A stretch of DNA of 64,000 nucleotides from Propionivibrio sp. (GCA_047601695.1 JASGIW010000001.1:46525-110524), one strand, 5' to 3'; counted from the first letter of the stretch, positions 14,131-62,105 are shown. A program made the numbers and translations. The notes: a model not told the origin generated them from the sequence alone.

Positions 14131-14135
14131 GGCGC

Positions 14136-15152: not shown

Positions 15153-15179
15153 AAAAAAGCCGGCGCGAGGCCGGCTTTT
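15153..15179 (-). terminator. Rho-independent terminator downstream of fumA
   Basis: AAAAGCCGGC-GCGAG-GCCGGCTTTT stem with A/T tracts on both sides. Confidence 0.8.
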
Positions 15180-15197
15180 CTTGGGTTGTGTCGATAC

Positions 15198-31107: not shown

Positions 31108-31111
<4 letters not shown>

Positions 31112-32410
31112 GCCAATATATCCAGTCCGTGCGCGGGATGAACGATATCCTGCCGGGCGAATCAGAATTGTGGGAGCTCTTTGAGGAGACGGTTCGTTCG
31201 TGGCTCAAGAGCTACGGCTACAAACCGATCCGCTTGCCGATCGTCGAACCGACGCCTTTGTTCAAGCGGGCAATCGGAGAAGTGACCGATATCGTCGAAA
31301 AGGAGATGTATTCGTTTACCGACAGCCTGAACGGCGAATTGCTGACCTTGCGTCCGGAAGGCACCGCCGGTTGCGTGCGCGCGCTGATCCAGCACAAACT
31401 GGCCGCGCAGCATCCACAGCGCCTTTATTACATGGGACAGATGTTCCGGCACGAACGGCCGCAGAAGGGGCGTTACCGTCAATTCAACCAGGTGGGGGTC
31501 GAGGCGTTCGGTTTCAGTGGCCCAGATATTGATGCTGAGCTCATTCTCATGGGGGCCAGGCTCTGGGATGACCTTGGGCTGGATGATGTCAAGCTGCAGT
31601 TGAATTCGCTCGGACAACCCGGCGAGCGTGCCAAGCATCGCGCCGAACTCATTGCTTACTTCGAAAAATACGGCGACCTGCTCGATGAGGACGCGCGACG
31701 TCGCCTGCATTCCAACCCGCTGCGCATTCTGGACAGCAAGAATCCGACAATGCAGGAGATAATCGCCGGCGCGCCGAAGCTGATGGACCATCTGGGCGTT
31801 GAATCGATGGCGCACTTCGACGGCGTGCAGCAGGTTCTGCGCGATGCCGGTTTGCCGTTCGAAATCAACCCGCGTCTGGTGCGCGGCCTCGATTACTACA
31901 ATCTGACCGTGTTCGAATGGGTGACGGATCGTCTTGGTGCGCAGGGTACCGTGTGTGCGGGCGGGCGTTATGACGGCCTTGTCGAACAGTTGGGTGGTAA
32001 AGCAACGCCTGCGTGCGGTTTTGCGATGGGCGTCGAGCGACTGGTTACCTTGATTCGCGAGTCGGGTGGTGAGCCCGAGACTCCTGGGCCCGATGTTCTA
32101 CGTGGTGCATCAGGGCGATGCTGCCTCTCGCTTGGCGCCGCGCGTCGCGGAAGGACTGCGTGACCAGGGCATTGATGTCCTCTTCCATTGCGGCGAGGGC
32201 GGTTTCAAGTCGCAGATGAAGAAGGCCGATGCTTCGGGTGCAACCTTTGCGGTCATCATTGGTGACGACGAGGCGAACGCGGGTGAAGTGACGCTGAAGC
32301 CATTACGCTCCAATGGGGGCGGGGGCGTACAAAACGAACAGAAACGCGTCAGCCTCGATCAGGTGGCGGATGAAATCATGAACTCATTTTTGGATTGGGA
32401 AGAAGCGTAA
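31108..32410 (+). CDS. hisS: Histidyl-tRNA synthetase (frameshift near 32095)
   Basis: [28 protein letters not shown]; anticodon domain (KKADASGA) in the shifted frame. Confidence 0.95.
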
Positions 32411-33099
32411 TGGCGACCTACGACCTCGAAGAACAGGAACAACTAGCCGAGATCAAGGCTTGGTGGAAACAGTACGGAAACCTGCTGATCAATATTCTGT
32501 TGGCGGCGATGCTGGCGGTTGCGGCTTGGCAGGGTTGGAACTGGTATCAGTGCAACCAGGCCGGCCAATCCGCTGCCGTTTACAGTGTTTTGCAGAAAGC
32601 GGTCCAGGAAAAGGATTTGCAGAAGGTGAAGGCCGCGAGCGGCGAATTGCTCGAAAAATTCGGAAGCACGAGCTACGCCTCGCTGGGAGCGTTGTCCGCC
32701 GCCAAAGCACTGGTTGAGGCGGACGACGCGAAGACCGCGAGATTGCAGTTGTCCTGGGTCGTCGAAAACGGCAAGGATGAGTTCCGTGATCTGGCTCGCC
32801 TGCGTTTGGCGACGCTACTGCTCGATGACAAGGAATTCGATCAAGCGCTCAAGCAGCTTGAAGGAACGATTGGTTCGAGCTTGGAGATTCGCTTCATTGA
32901 AATGAAGGGCGATATTTACAGTGCGCAGAACAAGAAGACCGAAGCTGCCGGCGCTTACCAATCCGCGCTTGAAAAACTGAAGAGTTCAGACAAGAACGCT
33001 GGCAATGCCGCCATTCCCCAAGGTTTGCAGGGACAATCGTCGGCAGTCTATCAGCAGCTTCTCCAGCAAAAACTCGACTCGCTCGGCGGAGGACAGTAA
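32410..33099 (+). CDS. yfgM: YfgM family TPR membrane protein
   Basis: YDLEEQEQL...WWKQYG, ARLRLA. Confidence 0.9.
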   Translation: MATYDLEEQEQLAEIKAWWKQYGNLLINILLAAMLAVAAWQGWNWYQCNQAGQSAAVYSVLQKAVQEKDLQKVKAASGELLEKFGSTSYASLGALSAAKALVEADDAKTARLQLSWVVENGKDEFRDLARLRLATLLLDDKEFDQALKQLEGTIGSSLEIRFIEMKGDIYSAQNKKTEAAGAYQSALEKLKSSDKNAGNAAIPQGLQGQSSAVYQQLLQQKLDSLGGGQ

Positions 33100-40815: not shown

Positions 40816-42136
<1,321 letters not shown>

Positions 42137-42166: not shown

Positions 42167-43379
42167 CTAGATACTATGCCGTAATGCTTCATCCACAGGG
42201 GTTCTCGAAACGCGCCACGCAGGGATAATTGCGGCAAGCATCGTTGCAAGAGCGCCTGTCAAAAATGCATCAAATACAATTGATGGGATGATGAGTATAT
42301 GTGCGATGTATCCAATGTTCGCGTTCGGCGGGGGAGGCATTGGGATACCGACGATGGAGATGATGTGCGCCAGTGCGATGCCTAATAAGGCGCCCAGCGT
42401 GCCTCCCATAAGTCCGAGCAATGTATTTTCTACGAGCAGCAATCGAAAGACATACGATTTGTGATTGCCTAGCGCCATCATCGTTCCGAATTCACTCAAG
42501 CGTTCAAATACGCTCATATTGACGCTATTCGCAACACTCAAAAGAACGAGAACGAGGGTAATTAGCCTCAATACGCCGAATTGACGTTCATAAAGTTCGA
42601 CTGTACTTGCGTAAAAGCTGTTGAGGTCTGTCCATGTATTCACTTCAAAAATACTGGGATCCAACATGCTCCTCAATAGACCGGCAACACCCTGTGTGTC
42701 TTCCGTATTATGCAAGGAGAGTACCAAGGTGTTGATGCGCGTAGATGCCAAAAGGTCTTTTGCCGCGTTCAACGGAATTCGCACTGCGCGCGCATCGAAA
42801 TCAGCAGAAAAAGACTGGAAGATTCCTTTCACCTCGAAATCCAGATTGTTCAATGCGCCTTCCCCGATGTTGACCAATAATGTGACTTGGTCGCCAGGGT
42901 GCAGCTTAAGTGCCTGTGCCACGCCTTGACCCAGAAGAATGCCGTTGGTGTCAGTTTCCGAAAGCTGATGTCCTGAAGTTATCCTGAGCTGACTACCCAG
43001 CGCGGCTTCTTTTCCTGCCTCAATACCCTCACCGATGATTGACCAGTCGGTACGTCCGTTGTTTATCAACCCAGAGAAGTTTGACCCGAGCCATCTCGTC
43101 TTTTATGGCCGGAATTGCTTTCACGATACCCTTCAAGGTAACCGGATCTTCCAGAAGGTAACGTTCGGGGTTACGAGTCCCTTTGGCATGGAAGCCTGTC
43201 CGAGACACCTGAATATGCCCAGACTGTGAGTGGATCAACGCCTCACCCAATTGCTTATAGACGTCGTGAGAGAAGCCACCGCTGAGGATTAGTCCGATAA
43301 CGCCAAAGGCAATTGCGGCCAGCGTCATGGCGGTGCGAAAACGGTGGCGAAGAACATTGCGCAATGCAAGTTTCAACAT
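42167..43379 (-). CDS. MacB/FtsX/LolE-type ABC transporter permease (frameshift near 43080)
   Basis: LALRNVLRHRFRT; periplasmic domain; VFERLSEFGTMMALG; PAWRVSR. Confidence 0.85.
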
Positions 43380-43552
43380 GCTCGTAATCCCCAAACGGTC
43401 TGCGTAGATACGAATGACCGTGCGTTGCCACGTCCCTCGAGATTCACCGAACAATTGTCTGGCGCTTTGAAAAGTCGATTGAAATCAGCATCAGATGAGT
43501 ACGTTTCGGTGGTGGTATATTAGCCGAACATGGCTGACGTGGAGAGGTAGAT

Positions 43553-44443
43553 ATGAGCGGAAGTGACTCTGCATCTCAAGCGTTCGACTATCGTCAAGCG
43601 TTCTCGCGCAATCTTGGATGGGTAACCGAAGCTGAGCAACAGTTGTTGCGCACAAAGCGAGTTGCTATTGCCGGGCTTGGTGGTGTCGGTGGGATACACC
43701 TGCTGACCTTGGCTAGACTTGGGATCGGCAAGTTTACGATTTCTGATTTCGATAGCTTCGATATCGTCAATTTCAATCGTCAGGCTGGTGCCACACTGAG
43801 TTCACTGGGACGCCCCAAATCCACGGTGCTTACAGAGATGGTCATGGATATCAACCCGGAGGTGGATCTGCGTGTTTTTCCCGACGGCGTAACCGACAAC
43901 ACGGTTGCACCCTTCCTGAGCGACGTCGATGTATATGTCGATGGACTGGATTACTTCGCTTTTTCGGCACGGCGGCAGACTTTCGCAGCCTGCGAAGAGA
44001 GAGGTATTCCCATCGTAACGGCTGCTCCTCTTGGGATGGGCGCAGCAGTGCTGGTGTTTGGTCCCGGAGGCATGTCGTCCGAAGAGTATTTCGGATTTGA
44101 GGGTTGCGATGAGATGGAAATGGCTATCCGTTTTCTTGTAGGTCTCTCTCCCGCGATGTTGCAGCGCGGCTATGTTGCGGACATGAGTCGGATCGATTTT
44201 TCCGAACGGCGAGGCCCATCGAGCATTGCAGCTTGCCAGCTTTGCGCAGGCGTTGCCGCCGTAGAAACGCTGAAGCTGTTGCTCGGCCGTCGCGGCGTGA
44301 GGTTGGCTCCTTGGGCAAGTCAATTCGATGCTTATCGATCACGATACAAACTTACGTGGCGTCCGTGGGGATTCCGAAATCCTCTGCAAGGGCTCATGCG
44401 CTATCTGGTTCGTAGGCAGTTAGTCTCGGGAAAAAAAGCCTGA
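43553..44443 (+). CDS. ThiF/MoeB (E1-like) adenylyltransferase
   Basis: VAIAGLGGVGG, ISDFDSFDIVNFNRQ, YVDGLD; stand-alone, no nitroreductase domain. Confidence 0.88.
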   Translation: MSGSDSASQAFDYRQAFSRNLGWVTEAEQQLLRTKRVAIAGLGGVGGIHLLTLARLGIGKFTISDFDSFDIVNFNRQAGATLSSLGRPKSTVLTEMVMDINPEVDLRVFPDGVTDNTVAPFLSDVDVYVDGLDYFAFSARRQTFAACEERGIPIVTAAPLGMGAAVLVFGPGGMSSEEYFGFEGCDEMEMAIRFLVGLSPAMLQRGYVADMSRIDFSERRGPSSIAACQLCAGVAAVETLKLLLGRRGVRLAPWASQFDAYRSRYKLTWRPWGFRNPLQGLMRYLVRRQLVSGKKA

Positions 44444-44500
44444 AGAATTACTGTTGGCAGACGAGAGGTTGATGAGATCCTGCTTTACGAAACGCGTGTC

Positions 44501-45190
44501 TCAAGTCGGGTTAAGGGGTTTGCGTCCGACCACGTTGTAACAGTTCCCAACGCGCTCCTCTTTTTCGATCTCGAATCCAGCGGAAGCAACGCGCTGACGA
44601 ATATCGTTGAGTTGGTAGGGCGTGTAGAGAATTCCTTTCTTGATGCCCCAAGCGTTGATCCGCTCGGCGATCAATTTCAGCGGCCAAGGCCCCGAAGGGA
44701 AAAGCAATACGTTCGCCGCAAGTCGGCCGCCTGGTTTCAGCACACGATAGATCTCTTTGAGCGAACCATTCACATCGGGAAAGCAATGTACTGAATTAGC
44801 GATATTCGCGGTATCGAAGACGTTGCTGTCAAACCCAAGATCGGCCGCATCGGCATGTTCGAGGGAAATCAATGGGTTATCGGCGAATCTGCGCATTGCA
44901 CCTGCCAACATCGGTTCAGCGTAGTCAAACCCCGTGATTCGTACCGGCGGCATTCCTTTCCACTTGCGCCAGCGGAGTACAAGTTCGAGAAGAGTGCCGG
45001 TGCCACAGGCTGCTTCAAGATGGTTTTCACCAAAATTCCCGGAAAAAAAACGAAGCTGAGCCGGAAGCGTGCTGTTGTAGGCGAACGTGAGAATGAAAAA
45101 GCCTCTCAGGTCGTACCACCATGGTTCTGACACGTAAGCTTGCGCTATTTCTTCCTTCGTCTTTTTTGGATGCCCTTCAGAGTAAGCCAT
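44501..45190 (-). CDS. Class I SAM-dependent methyltransferase
   Basis: LEAACGTG, GFDYAEPML, ADAADL, YRVLKPGG. Confidence 0.85.
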   Translation of the reverse strand: MAYSEGHPKKTKEEIAQAYVSEPWWYDLRGFFILTFAYNSTLPAQLRFFSGNFGENHLEAACGTGTLLELVLRWRKWKGMPPVRITGFDYAEPMLAGAMRRFADNPLISLEHADAADLGFDSNVFDTANIANSVHCFPDVNGSLKEIYRVLKPGGRLAANVLLFPSGPWPLKLIAERINAWGIKKGILYTPYQLNDIRQRVASAGFEIEKEERVGNCYNVVGRKPLNPT

Positions 45191-45524
45191 TGTCAACCAA
45201 CCTTTCTCGGTTGTGCCTAGGAACCCGAGTCGAAAAGCGGAGACTGGATATTGCTCTTTTCTTTCCGATCTCGTTCGATTATGCAGCGCTGATCCTGTGT
45301 TGTACAGTAACGGGAAGGAGTTATCGAATTCTGGATGGACTGCTTTCCGCGCCTAGTCCGTTGCTGTTGATGGCATTGGAACGGCCTGTTTTTGACCGTG
45401 TTCAGCTAACGACTTTAGTCCGCCCTGTGTCGATGCTCCGCGCATCCAGAGAATAATTGAGTTGCATCCTTGTTGAAGATGTTTTCCTGGGCTGGTGGTG
45501 GGGCTTGACCTGGAGACCTCGAGT

Positions 45525-46745
45525 ATGGGGCGCGTATTTCTGCTGGCATTCCGGAATCTGTATCGACAACCCAGGCGGACCAGCCTCGCCTTGCTCGCCG
45601 TTGTATTCGGCGTTATTGCCCTTGTATTGGCGGGTGGTTTCATTGAATGGGGGCTCTGGTTCGGACGCGACTCGACGATTCATTCTCAGCTGGGTCACCT
45701 GCAGATTGTCAGGAATGGCTACTTCGAAAACGGCATTGCAGATCCTTTCAACTACCTGCTGCCGGACAAGTCAAAAGAACTCGATCGCATCAAAGCGCTC
45801 GAGGCAGTCGAAGCCGTTGGGCCGAGATTGTCTCTGAGCGGATTGATCAGTCTCGGTGAGTCCACCATCTCCTTCATTGGCGACGGAGTAGACCCAGAAG
45901 CGGAAATCAATCTGAGTCGATCTTTGACGATCCGTGACGGACAGAGTCTCTCTTCAGGCGATGCGAAAGGAATTATTCTTGGACAGGGCTTGGCGGCGAA
46001 TCTGGGTGCTCACGTGGGAGACTCAATCGTCTTGCTCGCGACGACTGCGCGTGGGACCACCAATGCCGTGGAAGTTCATGTTCGTGGCATTTTTTCCACG
46101 GTCACCAAGGCATATGACGACGCCGCATTGCGAATGCCTATTGAAATCGCCAGGAAACTCCTGCGCGTCGAAGGCGCGCATGCATGGGTTGTACTCCTGA
46201 AAGAGACGGATCTCACATCGTCGGTTGCGGAAGAAATTCGTATGACCTCCACCAAGGAAAACTATCAGGTGAGGGAATGGCGCGATATGGCCGACTTCTA
46301 CAATAAAACGGAGACGCTTCTGGTCAAGCAGTTTGGTGTCGTGAAAGTGATCATCGGGTTGATCATCGTGCTGAGCATCAGCAATACCATGATGATGGCG
46401 GTGCTGGAACGTACTGGAGAAATCGGCACGATCATGGCTCTGGGAGTTCGGCGGCGAGGCGTGCTCCAATTATTTTTGGCGGAAGGAGTCGTCATTGGAC
46501 TGACGGGCGCGGCGCTAGGCCTTGCGGCTGGATATGTTCTGGCCGGCATCATTTCATATATCGGAATCCCGATGCCCCCGGCGCCAGGCATGGCGGATGC
46601 CTATACCGCTCGAATCCTGGTCACCGGTTCCCTGGCCATCGAGTCGTTCAGCCTGGCTTCGTTAACTACACTTCTCGCCAGTTTCTATCCAGCGTGGAAG
46701 GCAGGGAGAATGATTGTTGTCGATGCGCTGCGGGCGAATCGATAA
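45525..46745 (+). CDS. MacB/FtsX/LolE-type ABC transporter permease
   Basis: LAFRNLYRQPRRT, VLERTGEIGTIMALG, PAWKAGR. Confidence 0.88.
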   Translation: MGRVFLLAFRNLYRQPRRTSLALLAVVFGVIALVLAGGFIEWGLWFGRDSTIHSQLGHLQIVRNGYFENGIADPFNYLLPDKSKELDRIKALEAVEAVGPRLSLSGLISLGESTISFIGDGVDPEAEINLSRSLTIRDGQSLSSGDAKGIILGQGLAANLGAHVGDSIVLLATTARGTTNAVEVHVRGIFSTVTKAYDDAALRMPIEIARKLLRVEGAHAWVVLLKETDLTSSVAEEIRMTSTKENYQVREWRDMADFYNKTETLLVKQFGVVKVIIGLIIVLSISNTMMMAVLERTGEIGTIMALGVRRRGVLQLFLAEGVVIGLTGAALGLAAGYVLAGIISYIGIPMPPAPGMADAYTARILVTGSLAIESFSLASLTTLLASFYPAWKAGRMIVVDALRANR

Positions 46746-46861: not shown

Positions 46862-46877
46862 TGGCACAGTAGGTGCT
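46862..46877 (+). promoter_or_regulatory. Sigma-54 (-24/-12) promoter of the PEP-CTERM gene
   Basis: TGGCAC-AGTAG-GTGCT; GG 46863-64 and GC 46875-76 are 10 nt apart. Confidence 0.75.
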
Positions 46878-46934: not shown

Positions 46935-47765
46935 ATGAACACTAATTTTAGGTTTGCCAAAAAGCTATCGGTGCTGGCAATCGCAGCGGCTGCGACCACT
47001 TCTGCTCACGCTATCGGCACTTTCCAGGAGTTCGAAGTCAGCGAAGGCAGCGTTCCGGGAGCGTTTGCTAACACCTTCATCGCCGACAAGGGCAATGGCG
47101 GTTACAACGAAGTCCTGACGGTCAATATTGACGGGACCTTTGATACTCAAGCGTATGCTGACTTTACCGCTTACTACAAAAATGACGGCTCGAATCTGGT
47201 TTCCACCACGCAGATCGGTGGCGGCGCTTTTGGCGCTACCTACCAATACCAGATCTACGCAGTGTTCAACTCAAGCGGCGTTTTGACCCCTACGGGTTTC
47301 CAAGGTCTGACTGGGTCATTCAGTCTGTATATTGACCCGAATTCGAATACGACTAAAACGTTAGGCTCGACTGGTCTGGATGCGGTCATTCTCGGCAACA
47401 ATTCGGATGACTATCTGATCGCGTCGACGAGCAGCGTGGTTTACGCAAATGGTCTCGTCGGCACGCCCGGTGCATTTGACTTCTTGTTCAAGAATCTCGT
47501 GCTGACTTCGGTTGATCAGGATTTGCTGTCACCTGGCGTTCAAGCCGGAACGACGTATTTTACCGACCCGAATCCGTTCCATGTGCAGGTTCAGACCAAT
47601 GGCGATTTTGACGCCTTTCCCAACGTACCAGGCCCAGGAACCTACACCAATATTTCTGGTGACGTAAGTTTCGTTTTCCCGGTTCCGGAACCGGCTTCCT
47701 TGGCCTTGATGGGGCTTGGTTTGGTCGGGCTTGGCTTCAGTCGTCGTCGCGGGGCAGCGAAGTAG
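46935..47765 (+). CDS. pepA: PEP-CTERM protein, PepA-like (flocculation-associated)
   Basis: Signal ending SAHA; EGSVPGA..NTF.ADK N-terminus recalls Zoogloea-type PepA (from memory); VPEPASLALMGLGLVGLGFSRRR sorting signal; AGGAG RBS. Confidence 0.85.
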   Translation: MNTNFRFAKKLSVLAIAAAATTSAHAIGTFQEFEVSEGSVPGAFANTFIADKGNGGYNEVLTVNIDGTFDTQAYADFTAYYKNDGSNLVSTTQIGGGAFGATYQYQIYAVFNSSGVLTPTGFQGLTGSFSLYIDPNSNTTKTLGSTGLDAVILGNNSDDYLIASTSSVVYANGLVGTPGAFDFLFKNLVLTSVDQDLLSPGVQAGTTYFTDPNPFHVQVQTNGDFDAFPNVPGPGTYTNISGDVSFVFPVPEPASLALMGLGLVGLGFSRRRGAAK

Positions 47766-47798: not shown

Positions 47799-47834
47799 GA
47801 AGATGGCGGCTTGGGTATCCAAGCCGCCATCTTC
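47799..47834 (+). terminator. Terminator hairpin after pepA
   Basis: Perfect 16-bp stem GAAGATGGCGGCTTGG-GTAT-CCAAGCCGCCATCTTC, then ATGTTT. Confidence 0.75.
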
Positions 47835-48282: not shown

Positions 48283-48912
48283 ATGTTTAGCAGCCTGTAT
48301 CGATGTGTTGGAAAGACATTTCATACTGTCTTGATCAGTGCTCTGGCGGCGATAGTCGTCGGGTGCGCTGCAACCAATCCTCCGGCTCCGTCGGTGGCCG
48401 CATCGCCGGACTACAACTACATCATTGGCCCGGGTGATATGGTCAATATCGTGGTTTGGAGAAATCCGGAACTCTCCATGTCGGTTCCGGTCCGTCCTGA
48501 CGGTAAGATCGCGGCACCTCTGGTGGAGGATCTTGTCGCCATGGGCAAGGACTCCACGACACTTGCGCGAGACATCGAAAAGGAATTGGGAAAGTTTATC
48601 CGAGACCCTGTGGTGACCGTGGTCGTCACTGCTTTTGTCGGTCCTTACAGCGAGCAGATTAGAGTCGTCGGCGAGGCCGCCAAACCGCAGACGCTTCCGT
48701 ACAAGCAGAAAATGACCCTTCTGGATGTGATGATCGCCGTTGGCGGGATGACGGACTTCGCGGACGGAAACGCGACGACGCTTCTGCGCACGACTGAGGG
48801 TGACAAACAGTACGGTGTTCGGGTCAAGGATTTGATCAAGCGAGGCGACGTTTCGGCGAATGTCGAGATGAAACCGGGCGATGTGCTGATCATTCCGCGC
48901 AGTTGGTTCTAG
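48283..48912 (+). CDS. Polysaccharide export lipoprotein (Wza-like, XrtA system)
   Basis: Lipobox VVGC, YIIGPGD, VRPDGKI, PGDVLIIP. Confidence 0.9.
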   Translation: MFSSLYRCVGKTFHTVLISALAAIVVGCAATNPPAPSVAASPDYNYIIGPGDMVNIVVWRNPELSMSVPVRPDGKIAAPLVEDLVAMGKDSTTLARDIEKELGKFIRDPVVTVVVTAFVGPYSEQIRVVGEAAKPQTLPYKQKMTLLDVMIAVGGMTDFADGNATTLLRTTEGDKQYGVRVKDLIKRGDVSANVEMKPGDVLIIPRSWF

Positions 48913-48991
48913 ACGATCTAGTGTCTTTCGTTGCCATGCCTTTATCGGGCTGAGTTGGCTCTCATCAATCAACTAGAGAAACCAAAGATCG

Positions 48992-50552
48992 ATGGACGAA
49001 ATAATCCGACAAGCGATTACGATCCTGAGAGGCATGTGGAAACACCGCTGGCTTGGGTTGGCGGTGGCTTGGATTGTTGGTGTGCTGGGTGTCGTTGTCG
49101 TACTCCGTATCCCCGACAAATATGAGGCTTCCGCCAGAATCTATGTCGATACGCAATCCATTCTGAAGCCGTTGATGTCGGGGTTGGCAATCGAGCCAAA
49201 CCTTGATCAGCAGATCATGATTCTGAGCAGGACGTTGATCAGCCGTCCAAATATCGAAAAGCTCGTCCGCATGGCGGATCTTGACCTCAATATCAAATCC
49301 AAACAGGGTCAAGAGGCGCTGATTGATGAGCTGATGACATCGCTCACCATCAAGAGCACGTCACGCGACAATCTTTATACGCTGGCCTATAGCTCCGAGA
49401 AACCCGAGCGAGCCAAGAAGGTCGTCCAGTCGTTGGTGTCGATATTCGTCGAGTCCAGTCTTGGGGATAAGCGAAAGGATACGGACTCGGCGATCAAATT
49501 CATCGACGACCAGATACTGACCTATCAAAAGAAACTCGAGGAAGCCGAGAATCGTCTGAAAGAGTTCAAGTTGAAGAATATTTCTTTGCAGACAGCGGAC
49601 GGGAAAGACTATTTCGGCAGAATTGGTGAAATCAGCGCTGTTCTGGCGAGTTCGAAGCTTGAACTTCGTGAGGCGGAGAATGCTCGGGATGCATTGAAGC
49701 GGCAACTTGTTGGTGAAGAACCCTCATTGCTGCCGGACACGCCGGAGAACAATGCGGCCATTTCCTTGCCGGAAATCGACGGGAGAATAGATGTATTGAA
49801 GCGGAACCTCGACGGGTTGCTGCAGCGATACACGGAAAAGCATCCTGACGTGGTTGGTACGAGAAGAATGATCAAGGAACTCGAGGAGCAGAAGCAGGAA
49901 GAGATTTCCGCTCGCAAGAAAGTGGCACCGACAAGTCCGGCATCACTCACAAATACGAATCCTGTCTATCAGCAACTCAAGGTTTCCTTGGCCGAGAACG
50001 AGGCAACCATTGCGTCGTTGTCAGTGCGGGTTGCAGAGTACCAGGCGCGTTACGATCAACTCAAGGACTCGGTCAAGATGATTCCGCAGATTGAGGCGGA
50101 GTTGACCCAGCTGAATCGCGACTACGATATCAACAAGAAGAACTATGAGAGCCTGGTTGCACGTCGTGAATCGGCGACGATATCCGGCGATATGGATTCG
50201 AGCGCAGCCGGCGTAGAACTTCAGGCTGATCGATCCTCCGCGTGTCGCGCCACAACCCGTCTCACCGAATAGGCTCTTGTTGCTGCCATTGACGCTGGTG
50301 TTGGCGATTGCCGTGGGACTCGCCGTTCCGTTCGCCGCAAGCCAGATTCGGCCGGTTCTGTTCGATGCAAAGGCGTTGCGGGAACTGACTGGGCTCCCGT
50401 TGCTTGGCACGATATCCAAGAATGTGGACGAGCCGTTGAAGCGGAAGGAGAAGAAAGACTTGCGACGATTTGTTGCGGTTACGGGTTCGCTTTTCGCGGC
50501 GTATGGGGCCGGGATAGCGTTGCTGGTATTCCTTAGCTTCCGCACCGCCTAA
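48992..50552 (+). CDS. Polysaccharide chain-length determinant (TIGR03007-like; frameshift near 50215)
   Basis: YEASARIYVD, YTEKHPDVV, coiled coils; FRLIDPPRV and C-terminal TMs in the shifted frame. Confidence 0.88.
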
Positions 50553-50561
50553 GGAAAAGCC

Positions 50562-51488
50562 ATGAGCCTAATTGAACAAGCGGCACAAAGATTGGAACAA
50601 CTCAGGCAAGCCGGAGTGGATGTTCCTGTGAGGTCTACGACCGAGCCGCATGCAGTTGGCGATGCGGCAAAAGTCGAGGTGCGCGACGAGGCAATGGCGG
50701 ATTCGCCTGCGCTACCGGAGAAGCATGCTTCGGGGAACACTGACGGTTATTCGTCGCGGCGAGTCGAACTGGACCTTCATGCGTTGTCGGCGGCCGGATT
50801 CGTTCGTCCAGACGCGCCGCGATCCCAGCTTGCGGACGAATATCGTGTCGTCAAGCGGCCGTTGATCGACAACGCCATGGGGCGGGGCGCCACACGAATC
50901 AAGGACGGTAACCTGATCATGGTTACCAGCGCGTTGCCGGGAGAGGGGAAGACTTTTACCGCGGCCAATCTGGCGATGAGCATTGCCATGGAACTGGACA
51001 ACACCGTGATGCTGGTTGATGCCGATGTTGCCAGACCAACGTTGCTGAACAAACTCGGTTTGCCGCCCATGCGTGGCCTTCTGGATGTGCTGGTGGATGA
51101 TTCGATTGACTTGTCCCAGGTCCTGCTGCGCACAAACGTCGAGAAACTGACCGTGCTGCCGAGCGGAACGCAACATCCGCGCGCCACGGAACTGTTGGCT
51201 AGTGATGCCATGATGAGCCTGCTTGAAGATATGGCGAGCCGTTATTCAGACCGGATCATTATTTTCGACTCTCCTCCGCTTCTGGTGACGACTGAAGCGC
51301 GGGCACTGGCATCGCACATGGGGCAGGTTGTGATGGTGGTCAGGGCGGAAAGTACGACGCACTCGGACGTCAGGCATGCACTTGCGGCGATCGAATCCTG
51401 TCCGGTGAAGTTGATGTTGTTGAATCAGGCCAGGTCTTCTGCACCGGACGGTTACGGTTACGGCTACGGTTATGGCTACGCGAACTAA
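50562..51488 (+). CDS. Stand-alone BY-kinase (XrtA-associated tyrosine autokinase)
   Basis: SALPGEGKT, LVDAD, IFDSPP, C-terminal Tyr cluster GYGYGYGYGY. Confidence 0.92.
   Translation: MSLIEQAAQRLEQLRQAGVDVPVRSTTEPHAVGDAAKVEVRDEAMADSPALPEKHASGNTDGYSSRRVELDLHALSAAGFVRPDAPRSQLADEYRVVKRPLIDNAMGRGATRIKDGNLIMVTSALPGEGKTFTAANLAMSIAMELDNTVMLVDADVARPTLLNKLGLPPMRGLLDVLVDDSIDLSQVLLRTNVEKLTVLPSGTQHPRATELLASDAMMSLLEDMASRYSDRIIIFDSPPLLVTTEARALASHMGQVVMVVRAESTTHSDVRHALAAIESCPVKLMLLNQARSSAPDGYGYGYGYGYAN
51450..51479 (+). repeat. Five-copy GG(T/C)TA(C/T) hexamer encoding the Gly-Tyr autophosphorylation cluster
   Basis: GGTTAC GGTTAC GGCTAC GGTTAT GGCTAC. Confidence 0.8.
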
Positions 51489-53034
51489 TCCCCGCAGCGG
51501 CCCAGCGACCCTGAGCCGGATTGCCGGCGTTCTATTGTCGGTAAGTGTTGTATCTGTCATGGTCCCGGCTTATGCGGGCGATTGGAAAATCACACCCACG
51601 CTAGCCATTACCGAAACGGCAACCGATAACGTCGGACTGACCAGCAAAAATACGCAAAGCGATCTGATCAGCGACATCAATCCCGGTATTCGCATCGAGG
51701 GTTCTGGCGGTCGATCGAAACTGCGTTTCGACTACCAGATGCACAATCTCTTTTATGCGCAGGATTCGTCGCGTAACGAGATACAGAACTCATTGAATGC
51801 GCTCGGGACGCTGGAAGCTGTCGAAAACTGGCTCTTCATCGAGGCCAGCGGGAGTATTTCACAGCAGAGCCTTTCAGCGTTCGGAAGTTCGTCGGCTTCG
51901 TCGTCGGTCAACGTCAATACGAACCTGAATACCACCGAGACGTCAACCTATCGGATTTCACCCTATATCGTCGGTTCGTTCGGCAACTTCGCCGACTATC
52001 AATTGCGCTATAACCAGAGCATCACGCGCTGGAAATCAGGTTTATCCAACGACGAGGACGTCAACGAACTGATTGGAAGTCTGAGAGGCAATACCCGGTT
52101 TTCAAACCTGGGCTGGTCGATCGATGCCAGTACGCAGAATGTGAATTTCGATCGTGGCCGCGATAACGAAGACGATCGAGTGCGCGGCATGCTCACTTAT
52201 CAGATCGATCCGCAATTTCGTATCTATCTCATTGGTGGTGTCGAGTCCAACAACTACCAAAGCCTCGACATGAAGTCGAACACGACGCAGGGTGCCGGCT
52301 TCGACTGGTCGCCGACGGAACGCACACAACTGTCGGTGAGCAGGGAGAATAGGTTCTTCGGCCCGGCCAATACGATCAGCTTTGTGCATCGGACCGCGAA
52401 CACTGCGTGGAAGTATTCCGATACGGAGGATGTGGTTACGCAGACGGATCAGAATTCGACAGCGAGCCTTGGAACCAACTACGACCTGTTCTACAACCTC
52501 TTCACCTCGGCGATTCCGGATCCAGTGGCGCGCGCGGCTTTCGTTAATGCACTTCTTGCAGCGAACGGTCTATCGCCCAACGCGCAAATGCAAGGCAGTT
52601 TCCTGACCAATGGCTCGACCATCGAGCACCGTCGTGAATTGTCGTTTGCCTTGCTTGGCGCTAGAAATACGCTGACATTTGCCGCCGGCGAGACGCAGTC
52701 CGAGCGCGCGTCGCAAGGGGCATTTATCAGTTTGTTGGGGGCCAGCGACTTTCTTGAGGCGCAGAAGATCCGCCAGCGATTCGCCAGCGTCAACTGGTCG
52801 CACAAGCTGACGCCGTTGTCGTCGCTGAATGCGTCGGTTTCTAGATCGAACAGCAAAGGTTCCGGCACTGGAACCTCGAATCTCGAGACGACGGAGCAGG
52901 TCTACCACGTGAATCTCACGACTCAACTCGGTCCGAAGACCAATGCGGGCGTCAGTTTCAGGCACGCGGAGGGTGATGGAACGGTAGGCTATACCGAAAA
53001 TGCGTTGTCCGGTACGTTGTCTCACCAGTTCTAG
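51472..53034 (+). CDS. PEP-CTERM locus outer-membrane beta-barrel protein (TIGR03016-like)
   Basis: Signal ending AYA; WKITPTL...TDNV; alternating beta-strands; terminal LSHQF. Confidence 0.82.
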   Translation: MATRTNPRSGPATLSRIAGVLLSVSVVSVMVPAYAGDWKITPTLAITETATDNVGLTSKNTQSDLISDINPGIRIEGSGGRSKLRFDYQMHNLFYAQDSSRNEIQNSLNALGTLEAVENWLFIEASGSISQQSLSAFGSSSASSSVNVNTNLNTTETSTYRISPYIVGSFGNFADYQLRYNQSITRWKSGLSNDEDVNELIGSLRGNTRFSNLGWSIDASTQNVNFDRGRDNEDDRVRGMLTYQIDPQFRIYLIGGVESNNYQSLDMKSNTTQGAGFDWSPTERTQLSVSRENRFFGPANTISFVHRTANTAWKYSDTEDVVTQTDQNSTASLGTNYDLFYNLFTSAIPDPVARAAFVNALLAANGLSPNAQMQGSFLTNGSTIEHRRELSFALLGARNTLTFAAGETQSERASQGAFISLLGASDFLEAQKIRQRFASVNWSHKLTPLSSLNASVSRSNSKGSGTGTSNLETTEQVYHVNLTTQLGPKTNAGVSFRHAEGDGTVGYTENALSGTLSHQF

Positions 53035-53043
53035 GCAGTCGCT

Positions 53044-54159
53044 ATGTACGAGTCTTTCTATGGCTTGAGCAGCAAGCCTTTTCAGCTCAATCCGGATCCG
53101 AGCTTCTACTTCGGCAGCAAGCAGCACCGGCGGGCGACGGCTTACCTCGAGTACGGACTGCATCAGAACGAGGGGTTCATCGTCGTCACCGGCGAAATCG
53201 GCGCCGGCAAAACAACGATTGTTCGCGGACTGCTGGGCAAGCTTGATTCTTCGAAGGTCGTGGCGGCGCAGCTCGTCAGCACTCAGCTTGATGCGGAAGA
53301 CACGCTGCGCATGGTGGCCGCGGCTTTTGGCGTCAATACTCGGAGTCTCGGCAAATCCGAGGTTTTGTTGGCGCTCGAGGCGTTCCTTGTCAACGTGACA
53401 CGGCAAGGGAAACGCTGCCTGCTGATCGTCGATGAAGCACAAAACCTGACCGCGCATGCGGTCGAAGAACTTCGGATGTTGTCGAACTTCCAGTTCGAGA
53501 CGCAGGCGCTATTGCAGAGTTTCCTCATCGGTGAACCGGAATTCAGGGGCATCATGCAGAGCCCTCATATGCAGCAGCTGCGTCAGCGTGTCATTGCAGC
53601 TTGCCACATCGGGCCGATGGACGAGGATGAGACGCAAGCCTACATCGAGCACCGGTTGAAATGCGCGGGCTATACCGGCGAACCATTGTTTGATGCGGAA
53701 GCCTATGAGGCCGTCTTCAGAGCGAGCGGCGGGGTTCCGCGCCGTATCAACTCGTTGTGCGATCGGGTTCTGTTGTCAGGTTTTCTTGGTGGAAAGAGCG
53801 AATTCAAGAAAAGCGACGTCGAAGACGTTGCGCGCGAATTGAGTGAGGAAACGCTTGCGCCTGTCACGATGAGCAGGGGGATTACGGTTTCCGTTGGAAC
53901 CGATGGTACTGGAACGCGTCTCACCGATAGCGCCATCCTCGATATCGACTTGTCGCGGCTGGAGTTGGCTGCCGGGGTGGCGGATGAGGCTACGCGCGCG
54001 ATTGCCGATCTCAAGAATGGTTTGAATGAGCAGCGCATCGTCCGACTGGAGCGGAGCATGATCCGGATCGAGCGGAGCAGTGCGGCGACGCTGACCCTGT
54101 TGCAGCAGCTGGTGAATTCGATTCGCACCCGCCAGACGCAAGAAGACGAGCCTGCCTGA
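53044..54159 (+). CDS. ExeA-like AAA ATPase of the XrtA/PEP-CTERM system
   Basis: MYESFYGL..KPFQLNPDP, GEIGAGKTT, IVDEAQNL, GVPRRIN. Confidence 0.9.
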   Translation: MYESFYGLSSKPFQLNPDPSFYFGSKQHRRATAYLEYGLHQNEGFIVVTGEIGAGKTTIVRGLLGKLDSSKVVAAQLVSTQLDAEDTLRMVAAAFGVNTRSLGKSEVLLALEAFLVNVTRQGKRCLLIVDEAQNLTAHAVEELRMLSNFQFETQALLQSFLIGEPEFRGIMQSPHMQQLRQRVIAACHIGPMDEDETQAYIEHRLKCAGYTGEPLFDAEAYEAVFRASGGVPRRINSLCDRVLLSGFLGGKSEFKKSDVEDVARELSEETLAPVTMSRGITVSVGTDGTGTRLTDSAILDIDLSRLELAAGVADEATRAIADLKNGLNEQRIVRLERSMIRIERSSAATLTLLQQLVNSIRTRQTQEDEPA

Positions 54160-54220
54160 CGAGCGGAGGTTCTCGCGGTTGTATCACCGATCAACACTTA
54201 ACGCTTGAGGTGGTGGCGTG

Positions 54221-55072
54221 ATGCAGGTCAAGACAATCAGAAATGCCCTGACGATTGACGTCGAGGACTATTTTCAAGTCTCCGCGTTTGCCCCGTACAT
54301 AGCGAGAGCGCACTGGGATGATCGCGATTGTCGGGTCGAGGTCAATGTCGAACGCATCCTGCAGATGCTGGATGACTATGGGACCCACGCGACCTTTTTC
54401 ACGCTCGGTTGGATCGCGCAACGTTATCCGCATCTTGTCCGTGCCATTGTCGAACAAGGGCACGAGCTGGCAAGTCACGGTTATGGACATCAGCGGGCGA
54501 GCGATTTGACCGAGTCGGCATTTTTCGACGATATCGACTCGGCAAAGAAGATTCTCGAAGATTTGTCGGGTTGCGAAGTCGCCGGCTATCGCGCGCCGAG
54601 TTTTTCCATCGGCGAACGAAACCTGTGGGCGTTCGATTGCCTGGAGCGTGCCGGATATCGCTACAGTTCGAGCATCTACCCGATCCGCCATGATCACTAC
54701 GGCATGCCGGATGCTCCGCGCTTCGCGCATCAGGTGCGCGCCGATTTGCTGGAGGTGCCGGTGACCACGGCCCGATTCCTCGACAGGAACTGGCCGGCAA
54801 GCGGTGGCGGTTACTTTCGGTTGATGCCGTATGCCGTATCGAGTTGGTTATTGAGGCACGTTAACCGGAACGATCGTCAGCCAGTGATTTTCTATTTCCA
54901 CCCGTGGGAGATCGACGCCGAGCAGCCGCGAGTCGAAGGTATCGACGCGAAGACGCGGTTCCGGCACTACGTTAACTTGCACCGGACCGAGGCCAGGATT
55001 CGCAGGCTTCTTGAAGACTTCAGCTGGGCCAGAATGGATGAAATCTTCCTGCCGAACGGGAATGCCCGATGA
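54221..55072 (+). CDS. Polysaccharide deacetylase (XrtA system)
   Basis: TIDVEDYFQ, HELASHGYGH, YRAPSFS, YFHPWEID. Confidence 0.92.
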   Translation: MQVKTIRNALTIDVEDYFQVSAFAPYIARAHWDDRDCRVEVNVERILQMLDDYGTHATFFTLGWIAQRYPHLVRAIVEQGHELASHGYGHQRASDLTESAFFDDIDSAKKILEDLSGCEVAGYRAPSFSIGERNLWAFDCLERAGYRYSSSIYPIRHDHYGMPDAPRFAHQVRADLLEVPVTTARFLDRNWPASGGGYFRLMPYAVSSWLLRHVNRNDRQPVIFYFHPWEIDAEQPRVEGIDAKTRFRHYVNLHRTEARIRRLLEDFSWARMDEIFLPNGNAR

Positions 55073-56157
55073 CTGGAAGCGGAGACGAGAAAAACGGAGA
55101 GACGCTAACCGCCAGTGCGGCATTGATCGTACGGCGCCTTGATCCGGACAACGAAGAGCAAGCCACGCGTTGGGATGAATTCGTCAACCGGTGCGCGGCG
55201 GCAACTTTTTTCCACAGATCAGGCTGGCAGACGATCGTTACCAAGGTGTTTGGTCATGCGGCTTTTTTTCTGTACGCGGAACGCGGGGGCGTCGTCGAAG
55301 GGGTGCTACCGCTGGCCGAGGTGAAGAGCCGGTTTTTCGGTCATTCGCTGGTTTCCCTGCCGTTCGCCGTTTATGGCGGAGTCGCATCCAACTCGGCGGA
55401 AGCGGTAGCGGCGCTCGAGTCGGAGGCGCAAGCCATCGCCGTCAACTGCGGTGTCGAACATCTGGAATTCCGGAATCTTCAACGCCGCCACGCCGACTGG
55501 CCCATGCAGGATCTATACGTCAGCTTTCGCAAGGTGCTGTTGCCGGAGGTCGAAGCGAACATGCAGGCCATCCCGCGCAAGCAGCGCGCCATGGTGCGCA
55601 AAGGGATCAAGCATGGCCTGCGCAGCGAGATCGATGCCAACGTCGATCGCTTTTTCGCGCTCTACGCCGACAACGTTCACCGGCATGGCACGCCGGCCAT
55701 GCCCAAGCGCTATTTCGAATCACTGGTGAAGGTGTTTGGCGGCGACTGCGAAGTGCTGACGGTGTCCAGCGCCGATGGCCGTCCGCTAAGCAGCGTGCTC
55801 AGCTTCTATTTCCGGGACGAAGTGCTGCCGTATTACGCCGGCGACGATCTCGCGGCGCGCGATCTGGCCGCCAACGACTTCAAGTACTGGGAGCTCATGC
55901 GGCGCGCCTGCGAGCGGGGTATACGCGTTTTCGACTATGGGCGCAGCAAGCAAGGGACGGGATCCTATTCGTTCAAGAAGAACTGGGGCTTCGAGCCGCA
56001 ACCCTTGTTCTATGAGTATTGTCTGTACAAGCGCGACAGCGTTCCGCAAAACAACCCATCCAATGCCAAGTACCGGCTGCTGATCGAAGCGTGGCGCCGA
56101 ATGCCGATCGGGTTGGCCAATTGGCTTGGGCCTTTCATTGTTCGAAATCTGGGCTGA
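55069..56157 (+). CDS. FemAB-like GNAT protein (XrtA system)
   Basis: PRKQRAMVRKG, FDYGRSK, FKKNWGF. Confidence 0.9.
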   Translation: MTGSGDEKNGETLTASAALIVRRLDPDNEEQATRWDEFVNRCAAATFFHRSGWQTIVTKVFGHAAFFLYAERGGVVEGVLPLAEVKSRFFGHSLVSLPFAVYGGVASNSAEAVAALESEAQAIAVNCGVEHLEFRNLQRRHADWPMQDLYVSFRKVLLPEVEANMQAIPRKQRAMVRKGIKHGLRSEIDANVDRFFALYADNVHRHGTPAMPKRYFESLVKVFGGDCEVLTVSSADGRPLSSVLSFYFRDEVLPYYAGDDLAARDLAANDFKYWELMRRACERGIRVFDYGRSKQGTGSYSFKKNWGFEPQPLFYEYCLYKRDSVPQNNPSNAKYRLLIEAWRRMPIGLANWLGPFIVRNLG

Positions 56158-56165
56158 GGTATCCA

Positions 56166-57380
56166 GTGGGCGATCTGCTCTATCTCGTGCATCGACTTCC
56201 CTATCCCCCGAACAAGGGTGACAAGGTACGCTCGTATCATCTGCTCAAGCATCTCGCGGCGCGGCATCGGGTATTTCTCGGCACGTTCATCGACGATCCG
56301 CAAGACGAAGACTATGTGGACGTATTGCCGCAATACGTTGCCGACATGCATATCGCCCGGATTTCACCGCGAACAGCCAGGTTGCGCAGCCTTTCCGGTC
56401 TGTTCGGCAATGAAGCCCTGACCTTGCCTTACTACCGTGACGCGGGATTGAAAACATGGATTGACCACGTCTTGCGTGAGAAAAGGATCGATGCTGCCAT
56501 CGTCTTTTCGTCCGCGATGGCGCAGTACGTGACAGATACTCCCGGCCTCCGAACCCTGGTCAACTTCGTTGACGTCGACTCGGCCAAATGGACCCAATAT
56601 GCGCCGAATCATCGCTGGCCATTGTCCTGGCTGTATCGCCGCGAGGGCGAACGCTTGCTTGCCTACGAGCGATCCGTCGCCAGGCAGGCGACGCATTCCT
56701 TTTTCGTCACCGACGCTGAGACGGAACTGTTTTGCAGCCGTGCGCCCGAATGCCGGGGGCGTGTCGAGGCAATGTGCAACGGCGTCAACGCCGAGTTCTT
56801 TTCGCCCGAGCATGATCTGGTATCGCCTTTTGGCGACGATGAGCTACCGCTTGTGTTTACGGGCGCCATGGATTACTGGCCGAATGTCGATGCGGTCAGC
56901 TGGTTTGTTGCGGAGATACTGCCTGGGCTGTTGCGGAGCCATTCCGCGCTGAAGTTCTATATCGTCGGGCGCAGCCCGACGCCGGCCGTCATTGCGCTGG
57001 CGAACGAACATGTCGTCGTCACCGGGACGGTGCCCGATGTGCGACCCTATCTGCGCCATGCGGCCACCGTCGTTGCGCCTCTGCGCCTTGCTCGCGGTAT
57101 CCAGAACAAGGTTCTTGAAGCCATGGCCATGGGGGTGCCGGTGGTCGCCTCGCAGGAATGTGCCGGACCGGTCGATGCGGTGCCGGAACGCGATTTTCTG
57201 ACGGCCGGAACGGTGGCGGATTATCAGCATCAGATCACGCGCCTGCTGCGATCTTCTGAGCAGGCAGCCGCAATGGGAAAGGCCGCGCGTGCACAGGTCT
57301 TGGCGCGCTACAGTTGGGACGCGCATCTCTCGCGCATCGACCGTTTCATCGAGAACTCAGACGCTCACCGGGAGCAATGA
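56166..57380 (+). CDS. GT4 sugar transferase (TIGR03087-like)
   Basis: VHRLPYPPNKGDKVRSY, FTGAMDYWPNVDAV, GIQNKVLEAMAMG. Confidence 0.9.
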   Translation: MGDLLYLVHRLPYPPNKGDKVRSYHLLKHLAARHRVFLGTFIDDPQDEDYVDVLPQYVADMHIARISPRTARLRSLSGLFGNEALTLPYYRDAGLKTWIDHVLREKRIDAAIVFSSAMAQYVTDTPGLRTLVNFVDVDSAKWTQYAPNHRWPLSWLYRREGERLLAYERSVARQATHSFFVTDAETELFCSRAPECRGRVEAMCNGVNAEFFSPEHDLVSPFGDDELPLVFTGAMDYWPNVDAVSWFVAEILPGLLRSHSALKFYIVGRSPTPAVIALANEHVVVTGTVPDVRPYLRHAATVVAPLRLARGIQNKVLEAMAMGVPVVASQECAGPVDAVPERDFLTAGTVADYQHQITRLLRSSEQAAAMGKAARAQVLARYSWDAHLSRIDRFIENSDAHREQ

Positions 57381-58934: not shown

Positions 58935-59011
58935 GCGTCCTTGGGGCCAAGGCTATCGTCAGGATTCGGTCGTCGTGGCCATTGTCAAAAACGATGCGGT
59001 GAGCGCGAAAA

Positions 59012-60919: not shown

Positions 60920-60932
60920 AAAGAGCGGGGCA

Positions 60933-62105
60933 ATGAGAATTCTTTATCACCACCGGACGGCCTCGAAGGACGGCCAGGCCGTCCACATTGAGGAGATGGT
61001 CGGCGCGCTGCGTGCGCTCGGTCACGAAGTGCTCGTCGTCGCGCCGGAACTCGGCGATCCGGGAAAAATGGGCGACGACGTCGGTTGGGTTCACCGGCTG
61101 AAGGCCGCCTTGCCCAAGGCGCTCTATGAATTGCTGGAGTTGGCCTATTCGTTGCACGCCTACCGCAAACTCCGGGCGGCGGCTGGGCGGTTCATGCCCG
61201 AAGTCATCTACGAGCGTTACAACCTTTTCCTGCTGGCCGGCGCCATGTTGAAGAAGCGCCTCGGCATCCCGCTGCTGCTCGAAGTGAATTCGCCGCTCGT
61301 GTTCGAGCGCTCGCGGCACAGCGGCGGCCTATCGCTGCCTTGGCTGGCGCGGTGGGCCGAAGGGAGCGCCTGGCGGGCGGCGGATCGCGTACTGCCGGTG
61401 ACGTGGGTCCTCGGTCGCCATGTGATGGATTATGGCGTTCCCGATGAGCGTATCGCCGTGATTCCCAACGGCATCAACCGGGCGCATTTCGAGTCGGCGC
61501 CGGAACCGGAGGTGGCCAAGACGCGGCTCGGCTTGCAGGGAAAGCTGGTGCTCGGGTTTACGGGTTTCGTTCGCGACTGGCACGGTGTGGACCGCGTCAT
61601 TGCCTGGATGGCGAGCGCCGATGCGCCGCGCAACGCGCATCTCCTGGTCGTCGGCGACGGGCCGGTACGCGACACGCTTGAAGAACAGGCCAGGCAACTC
61701 GGTTTGGCGGATGCGGTGACGTTTACGGGAGTTGTCCATCGCGATGCCGTACCGGCGCACGTCGCCGCCTTCGACGTCGCGCTGCAACCCGCGGTGACTG
61801 CCTACGCGTCACCGCTCAAGATGATGGAATATCTGGTCCTCGGTAAGGCCATCGTTGCGCCGCGTACGCCGAATATCATGGAGATTCTGGAAGACGGCGA
61901 TAATGCGGCCATGTTCGACGAGAACGTCGAAGGCTGCTTCGAGCAGACATTGACGCAGGTTTGCCGGGATGCGGAATTGAGACTGCGCCTCTCGCATCGT
62001 GCGCGAGAGACGATCGATCGGCGACAATTGACCTGGATCGGAAATGCTCAGCGGGTTACCTCGCTGGCGGATGAGTTGATTTCAAGAAAAGCAAGGAAGA
62101 AATAA
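60933..62105 (+). CDS. GT4 glycosyltransferase
   Basis: [29 protein letters not shown]. Confidence 0.88.

Follow-up and report, generated by a model that had tools for sequence, protein, structure and literature searches.

Many environmental bacteria that form flocs and biofilms carry exosortase/PEP-CTERM systems, to which N-acyl amino acid synthases have reportedly been linked (Craig, Cherry and Brady, in 2011). To our knowledge, neither the acceptor or lipid partner of exosortase A (XrtA) nor the role of the linked synthases has been identified. Here, we discuss a four-gene block that stands next to an XrtA exopolysaccharide (EPS) locus in 64,000 nucleotides of DNA from Propionivibrio sp. 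(GCA_047601695.1 JASGIW010000001.1:46525-110524); "the window" refers to this whole stretch. The block encodes a ThiF-family adenylating enzyme and a class I S-adenosylmethionine (SAM)-dependent methyltransferase, bracketed by two MacB/LolCE-type ATP-binding cassette (ABC) permeases. The original prediction, made from the sequence, was that the block activates, methylates and exports a lipid or amino-acid-derived molecule. Comparative genomics supports that proposal, and we consider it reasonably likely that the block does the tailoring and export in an N-acyl amino acid lipid pathway and that this pathway is a functional part of the XrtA/PEP-CTERM system (PepA, EPS and floc).

Two neighbouring pieces of knowledge are already established: the link between synthases and exosortases, and pathways that join a synthase, a ThiF enzyme and a nitroreductase. 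The oxazolone synthetase OxzB carries out ATP-dependent adenylation and cyclisation of N-acyl amino acids (bioRxiv 10.1101/2020.06.11.147165). A split version of the OxzB-type enzyme, TyzB plus TyzC, has been characterised in Mycobacterium tuberculosis, and the TyzC subcluster FDO-A23 includes Betaproteobacteria (PMC10404671). In gene clusters of the stieleriacine, kyonggic acid and thalassotalic acid type, the role of ThiF has been termed enigmatic (PMC12479983). The founding PEP-CTERM paper makes no mention of ThiF, this methyltransferase or the permeases, and among searchable papers we found none that connects any of the three with exosortase systems.

The Propionivibrio block shares features with each of these systems. 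Like OxzB, which acts with the N-acyltransferase OxzA in Pseudoalteromonas rubra, the window ThiF belongs to NCBIfam family NF006077; the closest fusions of OxzB architecture are 52–60% identical to it, a figure that refers to those fusions and not to OxzB itself. As with the OxzB/OxzA pair, a FeeM-type synthase adjoins ThiF in many relatives of the window enzyme. Unlike OxzB, the window ThiF is not fused to a nitroreductase domain, and the 64 kb contain no nitroreductase gene; a SAM methyltransferase is found instead, and the module is joined to ABC permeases inside an XrtA locus. The TyzA/TyzB/TyzC (N-acyl tyrazolone) pathway is matched more closely by most Rhodocyclaceae relatives, which have a stand-alone ThiF and a stand-alone flavin oxidase; this oxidase, of the nitroreductase type, matches Acg/Rv1355c-type flavin mononucleotide (FMN) oxidoreductase models. 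The window, by contrast, has no equivalent of TyzC or TyzA, and its likeness to TyzB does not come from direct sequence comparison. The stieleriacine, kyonggic acid and thalassotalic acid clusters also group a synthase of N-acyl amino acids, a ThiF and a methyltransferase; unlike the window module, they keep the nitroreductase, their methyltransferases are of the aromatic-ring C- or O-type, and neither an exosortase link nor a Lol-like exporter has been described for them.

The ThiF gene (43553-44443, + strand) encodes a stand-alone enzyme of the OxzB/TyzB type, 296 amino acids (aa) long, that scores 459.5 bits against NF006077 (cut-off 266) and 141 bits against Pfam ThiF. NF006077 (PRK08223) is an equivalog family titled only "hypothetical protein". 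Among 1.84 billion cluster representatives (50%-identity clusters), searched exhaustively with HMMER, those closest to the window ThiF were mostly proteins of 650–690 aa whose N-terminal part is the ThiF. Three of these fusions that were scanned (P0123, P0128 and P0129) match NF006077 at 394–438 bits and also carry an Acg/Rv1355c-type FMN oxidoreductase domain, so the comparison with OxzB drawn in the original prediction holds at the level of the family. The GLGGVGG P-loop, D65/D67, NFNRQ, K89 and the Mg-binding D130 are at least 97% conserved over 94 homologues, and all are intact in the window protein. The closest solved structure is TcdA, the tRNA threonylcarbamoyladenosine dehydratase (E = 2.5e-17, with the N-terminal 150 residues alone aligning). 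TcdA too has the ThiF fold, and with ATP it cyclodehydrates an amino acid moiety that is N-acylated; unlike the proposed enzyme, it acts on tRNA, and its family model gives the window ThiF 67 bits against a cut-off of 304. By analogy with OxzB, the window ThiF would adenylate or cyclise an N-acyl amino acid.

The methyltransferase gene lies on the opposite strand (44501-45190, - strand; the open reading frame (ORF) runs to 45196) and encodes 229 aa counted from the ATG. It matches Methyltransf_11/25 in Pfam, with no specific family there and no NCBIfam family at cut-off. Its best score against the UbiE/MenG models is 57.6 bits, far from the cut-off of 216, and its context consists of ThiF, FeeM and PepA, not quinone genes. 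Homologues 64–88% identical to it occur over Beta- and Gammaproteobacteria. ThiF adjoins the methyltransferase in 17 of 18 informative homologue loci, a count that includes short metagenome contigs; most of the 10 loci from a metagenome scan with the methyltransferase were on such contigs and were used for adjacency. ThiF is also nearby on every long contig examined that has a methyltransferase homologue. In favour of the tie to PEP-CTERM proposed in the original prediction, these loci mostly stand beside a PepA-like gene, FeeM, PrsT or XrtA; PepA-like genes flank the methyltransferase in most of them, and of the first 6 loci with a methyltransferase homologue to be examined, 5 had a synthase of N-acyl amino acids.

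The order of the genes varies among these loci. A three-gene ThiF-methyltransferase-FeeM cluster is found in Methylococcus mesophilus. In Methylotenera, Acidovorax and Roseateles, the order is PrsT-FeeM-PepA-methyltransferase-ThiF, followed by EPS genes, and in Aquabacterium it is PrsK-PrsR-PrsT-PEP-CTERM-methyltransferase-LolA_like-DUF1302-MMPL-ThiF, again followed by EPS genes. Hahella has PrsT-MMPL-ThiF-FeeM-PEP-CTERM-methyltransferase, with XrtA further along. The version in locus L087 consists of LolA_like, ABC ATPase, DUF1302, PEP-CTERM, permease, methyltransferase, permease, ThiF and FeeM, and then EPS genes; other variants of the same set occur in L101, L102 and L103. The L103 copy (6751-16000) places a permease, the methyltransferase, ThiF, a permease and a PEP-CTERM gene among IS1595/DDE transposase genes (IS, insertion sequence), beside Calvin-cycle genes and at a distance from any EPS locus. 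In this copy, ThiF is split and one of the permeases truncated, and the module there may be mobile or decaying.

The methyltransferase is a dedicated partner of ThiF and a mutually exclusive alternative to the nitroreductase. Over 93 loci, 58 have the nitroreductase only, 14 the methyltransferase only, 21 neither and 0 both, and in none of the informative methyltransferase loci is a nitroreductase next to ThiF. In a neighbour-joining tree of ThiF, the methyltransferase-linked enzymes fall at 7 or more places among the nitroreductase-linked ones, and the window ThiF is 78–82% identical to nitroreductase-linked ThiFs. This scatter and this similarity indicate that one tailoring enzyme has replaced the other many times over, while the ThiF has otherwise stayed unchanged. 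The comparison thereby defines a nitroreductase-less branch of the recently discovered oxazolone/N-acyl amino acid lipid pathways.

The link to XrtA extends well beyond the window. We considered 80 species-level genome loci whose ThiF is 56–83% identical to the window protein, using ORF calling, clustering, annotation of recurrent clusters, a tblastn cross-check and a regular expression for PEP-CTERM. In 69 of the 80, at least one XrtA/PEP-CTERM marker lies within 10 kb of ThiF, the distance used for all counts that follow; a lack of co-occurrence with xrtA would have told against the original prediction, and this result favours it. Two or more XrtA EPS genes are present in 42/80, an ORF with a PEP-CTERM motif in 54/80 and PrsT in 16/80. 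Markers are also found in 24 of the 30 loci L057-L086 (ThiF ≤63% identical), which are mainly from Beta- and Gammaproteobacteria outside Rhodocyclaceae, plus a few Rhodocyclaceae metagenome-assembled genomes (MAGs). FeeM-type synthases of either kind accompany ThiF in 30/80 (scores of 224 bits against TIGR03694 and 175 bits against PF21926). TIGR03694 members, the NCBIfam counterpart of the synthase-exosortase link, are there in 15/80 and also count among the XrtA/PEP-CTERM markers. A nitroreductase-type oxidase is present in 54/80, a number that also applies to the position at +1 kb of ThiF. Paired FtsX permeases occur in 48/80, DUF1302 in 29/80, an ABC ATPase in 27/80 and LolA_like in 24/80. 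ThiF is therefore associated with FeeM, with permeases or MMPL, with LolA_like and DUF1302, with PepA-like genes and with XrtA loci. Together, these associations widen the known XrtA link to a conserved module, comprising an OxzB/TyzB-type ThiF, alternative tailoring by a flavin oxidase or a dedicated methyltransferase, and Lol-like envelope export, that is positioned at the head of XrtA EPS loci beside pepA-like genes.

The canonical Rhodocyclaceae layout has an EPS part on one strand (epimerase, TIGR03015 ATPase, TIGR03016 outer-membrane protein, tyrosine kinase, chain-length determinant, export protein and two permeases) and a divergent part with ThiF, the nitroreductase-type oxidase and then a variable gene, which encodes a PEP-CTERM protein, a GT28 glycosyltransferase, a hexapeptide acetyltransferase or a second type of methyltransferase. 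The layout ends with a DUF1302 outer-membrane protein, a LolD/DevA-like ABC ATPase and a LolA_like protein. In three loci (L014, L025 from Dechloromonas agitata, and L043), ThiF directly separates the two permease genes from the EPS export gene, with no nitroreductase or methyltransferase within 10 kb; ThiF and the permeases may be the minimal core. A different, 292-aa methyltransferase is grouped with ThiF and a nitroreductase in a soil Proteobacteria MAG (L004, 1-8692, the same as L005 and L007); two giant ORFs without a Pfam match (>2167 aa and 2014 aa) come before them, and permease and EPS genes are absent within 10 kb. ThiFs 60–72% identical to the window protein also occur in MAGs of unrelated phyla, one labelled Candidatus Obscuribacteraceae (L035), which has a typical Rhodocyclaceae-type layout, and one of Bdellovibrionota (L058); these are probably due to binning contamination or horizontal transfer.

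Both permeases combine a MacB periplasmic core (MacB_PCD) with a four-helix FtsX domain above Pfam gathering scores (for permease 1, in its C-terminal part), and so belong to the type VII superfamily. Permease 1 (42167-43379, - strand) is the ortholog of Azonexus permB; permease 2 (45525-46745, + strand), the ortholog of Azonexus permA, is 56% identical to permA of L001 and 82% identical to its counterpart in L006, with a ratio of nonsynonymous to synonymous substitution rates (dN/dS) of 0.06. The permease 2 ORF opens at a GTG at 45495, and its start is likely the ATG at 45525, which gives 406 aa, as in L006. The domain composition is that of LolCDE/MacB exporters, and the pairing of non-identical permeases resembles LolC/LolE; a LolD-like ATPase and a LolA_like protein in the fuller loci of relatives extend the likeness. 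Unlike LolCDE, the two permeases score only 108 (permease 2) and 73 bits against lolCE TIGR02212 (cut-off 362), the window has no ABC ATPase gene, and the loci elsewhere carry DUF1302 and LolA_like, not LolB.

If these parts work together, the pathway would proceed in four steps. First, a FeeM/TIGR03694-type synthase would make an N-acyl amino acid; its gene is adjacent in relatives and, in this genome, would lie outside the window. Second, ThiF would adenylate the carboxylate of this lipid with ATP, the reaction of the homologous OxzB and TyzB domains, giving an acyl-adenylate or a 5(4H)-oxazolone. Third, the dedicated SAM methyltransferase would act on the same intermediate, or precursor, that the flavin-dependent oxidase usually desaturates; candidate reactions are C4- or O-methylation of an azlactone tautomer, side-chain methylation and formation of a methyl ester. 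Fourth, the two LolC/E-like permeases, presumably with a LolD-like ATPase, would extract the amphiphilic product from the inner membrane, joined in fuller loci by a LolA_like carrier in the periplasm and a DUF1302 protein in the outer membrane. The product would thus reach the cell envelope, the site at which PepA and the exopolysaccharide act.

A more specific version holds that the FeeM-ThiF-methyltransferase product, once exported by the Lol-like permeases, is the co-substrate of exosortase A. It might be the lipid that accepts the cleaved C-terminus of PepA, or a ThiF-activated (azlactone or adenylate) N-acyl amino acid that serves as acyl donor for lipidation of PEP-CTERM proteins. The near-constant presence of a PepA-like gene beside the methyltransferase is consistent with this idea, without being proof of it, and we regard it as a long shot; if it were true, the module would anchor floc proteins to the outer envelope. 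The small, concrete gene sets found here, such as the ThiF-methyltransferase-FeeM cluster of M. mesophilus, lend themselves to probing both the lipid and PepA anchoring or flocculation.

Several observations weigh against the pathway as set out above. The activities of a stand-alone ThiF and of a methyltransferase of this type are predictions. An AlphaFold2 model of the methyltransferase (predicted local distance difference test score, pLDDT, of 81.6) has a bacterial phosphatidylethanolamine N-methyltransferase as its best Foldseek match (template-modelling score, TM, of 0.66–0.72), and the fold search as a whole returns generic class I small-molecule and lipid methyltransferases alone, which does not decide the methylation site. 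By tblastn, the 64-kb window contains no gene for FeeM, a nitroreductase, an ABC ATPase, LolA_like, DUF1302 or MMPL; ThiF has neither a flavin-dependent oxidase of the nitroreductase superfamily fused or adjacent to it nor an adjacent N-acyl amino acid synthase of the OxzA/TyzA/FeeM type, and the pathway in this genome is incomplete unless the partners are encoded outside the window. Permease 1, as assembled, is frameshifted. The two permease genes stand at the front of the EPS operon in the canonical layout of Rhodocyclaceae, and could serve EPS or protein export in place of lipid export. Lastly, the counts rest on crude ORF calling, tblastn and a PEP-CTERM regular expression, and about half of the loci are from Rhodocyclaceae and are not phylogenetically independent. 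On the question of the missing partners, a module of the window type (permease, ThiF, methyltransferase, permease, pepA, export gene) is also seen in L006 and L090 and evolves under purifying selection, so that the partners are probably encoded elsewhere in the genome.

The position of the permeases raises a first alternative: they could serve export for the EPS/PEP-CTERM system (polysaccharide, PepA or another envelope component), while ThiF and the methyltransferase make a separate signal or surfactant, with adjacency reflecting co-regulation only. In ~26 loci from Rhodocyclaceae, both permease genes point the same way as those for the export protein, the chain-length determinant, the tyrosine kinase and so on, and are divergent from ThiF; moreover, the PepA-methyltransferase-ThiF set of Methylotenera, Acidovorax and Roseateles is found at an EPS locus without permeases. 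However, in eight loci that have no EPS genes within 10 kb, the permease pair is still found with FeeM and ThiF (L046, L051, L052, L054, L055, L070, L078 and L103). In the first five of these, FeeM-permease-permease operons adjoin ThiF away from EPS genes, which ties the permeases to the lipid pathway and not to EPS only. In other loci, MMPL, LolA_like and DUF1302, a lipid-type export set, replace the permeases. These operons, and the ABC ATPase, LolA_like protein and DUF1302 outer-membrane protein that the fuller versions of the module add, favour the export role first suggested for the permeases, and we consider the separation of the two functions unlikely.

A second alternative is that the block is a decaying remnant in this genome, the oxidase, synthase, ATPase and carrier having been lost and one permease reduced to a pseudogene, so that nothing functional is made. 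Two permeases had been claimed, and both are present, but permease 1 is not intact: relative to intact orthologs, one extra base in a TTT run (43080-43082) splits it into ORFs at 43029-43454 and 42167-43069, and its 55–58% identity to Azonexus permB of L001 is spread over two frames in tblastn. This frameshift, the absence of all the partner genes from the 64 kb and the IS-flanked copy with a split ThiF in L103 fit the idea of decay. By contrast, L006 has an identical gene order with the permease and purA intact, its ThiF is 83% identical to that of the window, and L090 partly conserves the order. Against the intact 403-aa ortholog in L006, permease 1 shows 76–84% amino-acid identity, with dN/dS of 0.04–0.07 in both halves; ThiF and both permeases together span the same range, which reflects purifying selection, and values over all genes for which the ratio could be computed are 0.02–0.10 (for the methyltransferase, dS is not computable). 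Three further genes within 20 kb are also frameshifted as assembled: hisS (31108-32420, at ~32.1 kb), purA (41428-41443) and the gene for the chain-length determinant (~50217-50302). Because two of these genes, hisS and purA, are essential, and because both halves of permease 1 have a low dN/dS, the four frameshifts are probably assembly indel errors, not gene decay. We therefore view a non-functional remnant as distinctly unlikely.

ThiF-fold enzymes commonly adenylate the C-termini of proteins and peptides, and the window ThiF could in principle be an E1- or MccB-like enzyme acting on a processed PEP-CTERM protein or a ribosomal peptide, which the methyltransferase and permeases would then modify and export. 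Besides the general habit of the fold, weak matches to MccB structures (E ~1e-7) and the almost invariable adjacency of a PepA-like gene are in keeping with this. Nonetheless, the enzyme is in the family of OxzB and TyzB, whose substrates are small N-acyl amino acids, and FeeM synthases co-occur with it. The intergenic regions near ThiF contain no ThiS-like, MoaD-like, GG-terminated, precursor-peptide or other small conserved ORF. In addition, ThiF has no signal peptide, and PEP-CTERM processing would be expected at the membrane or in the periplasm. A peptide or protein substrate is thus highly improbable. Finally, a chance assembly of housekeeping genes, in which the superficial domain names ThiF, Ubie_methyltran and lolCE would stand for molybdenum cofactor or thiamine synthesis (MoeB/ThiF), quinone synthesis (UbiE/MenG) and lipoprotein release (LolC/LolE), is effectively refuted by family scores far under the cut-offs (ThiF sulfur-carrier model TIGR02356, 86 vs 275; MoeB TIGR02355, 60 vs 377; UbiE, 58 vs 216; lolCE, 108 and 73 vs 362), by the lack of a ThiS, MoaD or lolD gene in the window, and by the strongly conserved context.

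The four-gene block, for which the lipid pathway is the interpretation we favour, is bounded by purA and by pepA, the gene for a floc protein. ORF and family scans confirm the order given in the original prediction: permease (-), ThiF (+), methyltransferase (-), permease (+), pepA and then the XrtA EPS locus. The flocculation-associated PEP-CTERM protein gene pepA (46935-47765, + strand) scores 170 bits against NF033554 (cut-off 80), and the PEP-CTERM motif occupies residues 249-271 of its product. The complete XrtA/PEP-CTERM EPS locus follows at 48283-63424 (+ strand), with equivalog matches above NCBIfam cut-offs. It encodes an export protein, the frameshifted chain-length determinant, a tyrosine kinase, a TIGR03016 outer-membrane protein, a TIGR03015 ATPase, a deacetylase, a FemAB-family protein, the stp1 glycosyltransferase, XrtA-EpsI, an amidotransferase, a further glycosyltransferase and UDP-glucose dehydrogenase. 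The XrtA-EpsI fusion gene (57381-58934, + strand) scores 351 against TIGR03109 (cut-off 208) and has, in addition, the EpsI domain; nine other EPS genes exceed the cut-offs of TIGR03027, 03007, 03018, 03016, 03015, 03006, 03019, 03087 and 03108. Since exosortase A, a PEP-CTERM substrate and EPS genes of the XrtA type share a single locus, the window contains an XrtA/PEP-CTERM system.

A scan of 41-49 kb with Rfam gave no match, and scans for sigma-70 promoters and terminators were at chance level, with the exception of the pepA terminator, an intrinsic-terminator-like hairpin with a 16-bp stem at 47799-47834 (+ strand). A sigma-54-like -24/-12 element (TGGCAC-N5-GTGCT, 46862-46877, + strand; pattern search, 1 mismatch) lies in the intergenic region ~60 nt upstream of pepA. 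The number of such patterns over the window is not above chance, and the call is based on where the element lies, between genes, and on published work in which pepA depends on RpoN (PMC9850573). In Aquincola, pepA is RpoN-dependent and is followed by a stem-loop (PMC9850573), an arrangement that the putative element and terminator around the window pepA match.

Upstream of the block is a run of betaproteobacterial housekeeping genes (ndk, rlmN, pilW, rodZ, ispG, hisS, bamB, der, hflX, hflK, hflC, hisZ and purA). The G+C content (GC) falls from ~0.66 at 1–15 kb to ~0.51–0.53 at 42–50 kb and then returns to ~0.6. Since the housekeeping genes at 26–42 kb are already at 0.54–0.58, low GC is not confined to the EPS/ThiF block, and a horizontally acquired island, considered on the basis of low GC, was rejected. 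Further upstream, a 772-aa ORF (22868-25186) matches both the large (TIGR03648) and the small (TIGR03647) subunit of the VC_2705-type sodium/solute symporter and appears to be a fusion of the two.

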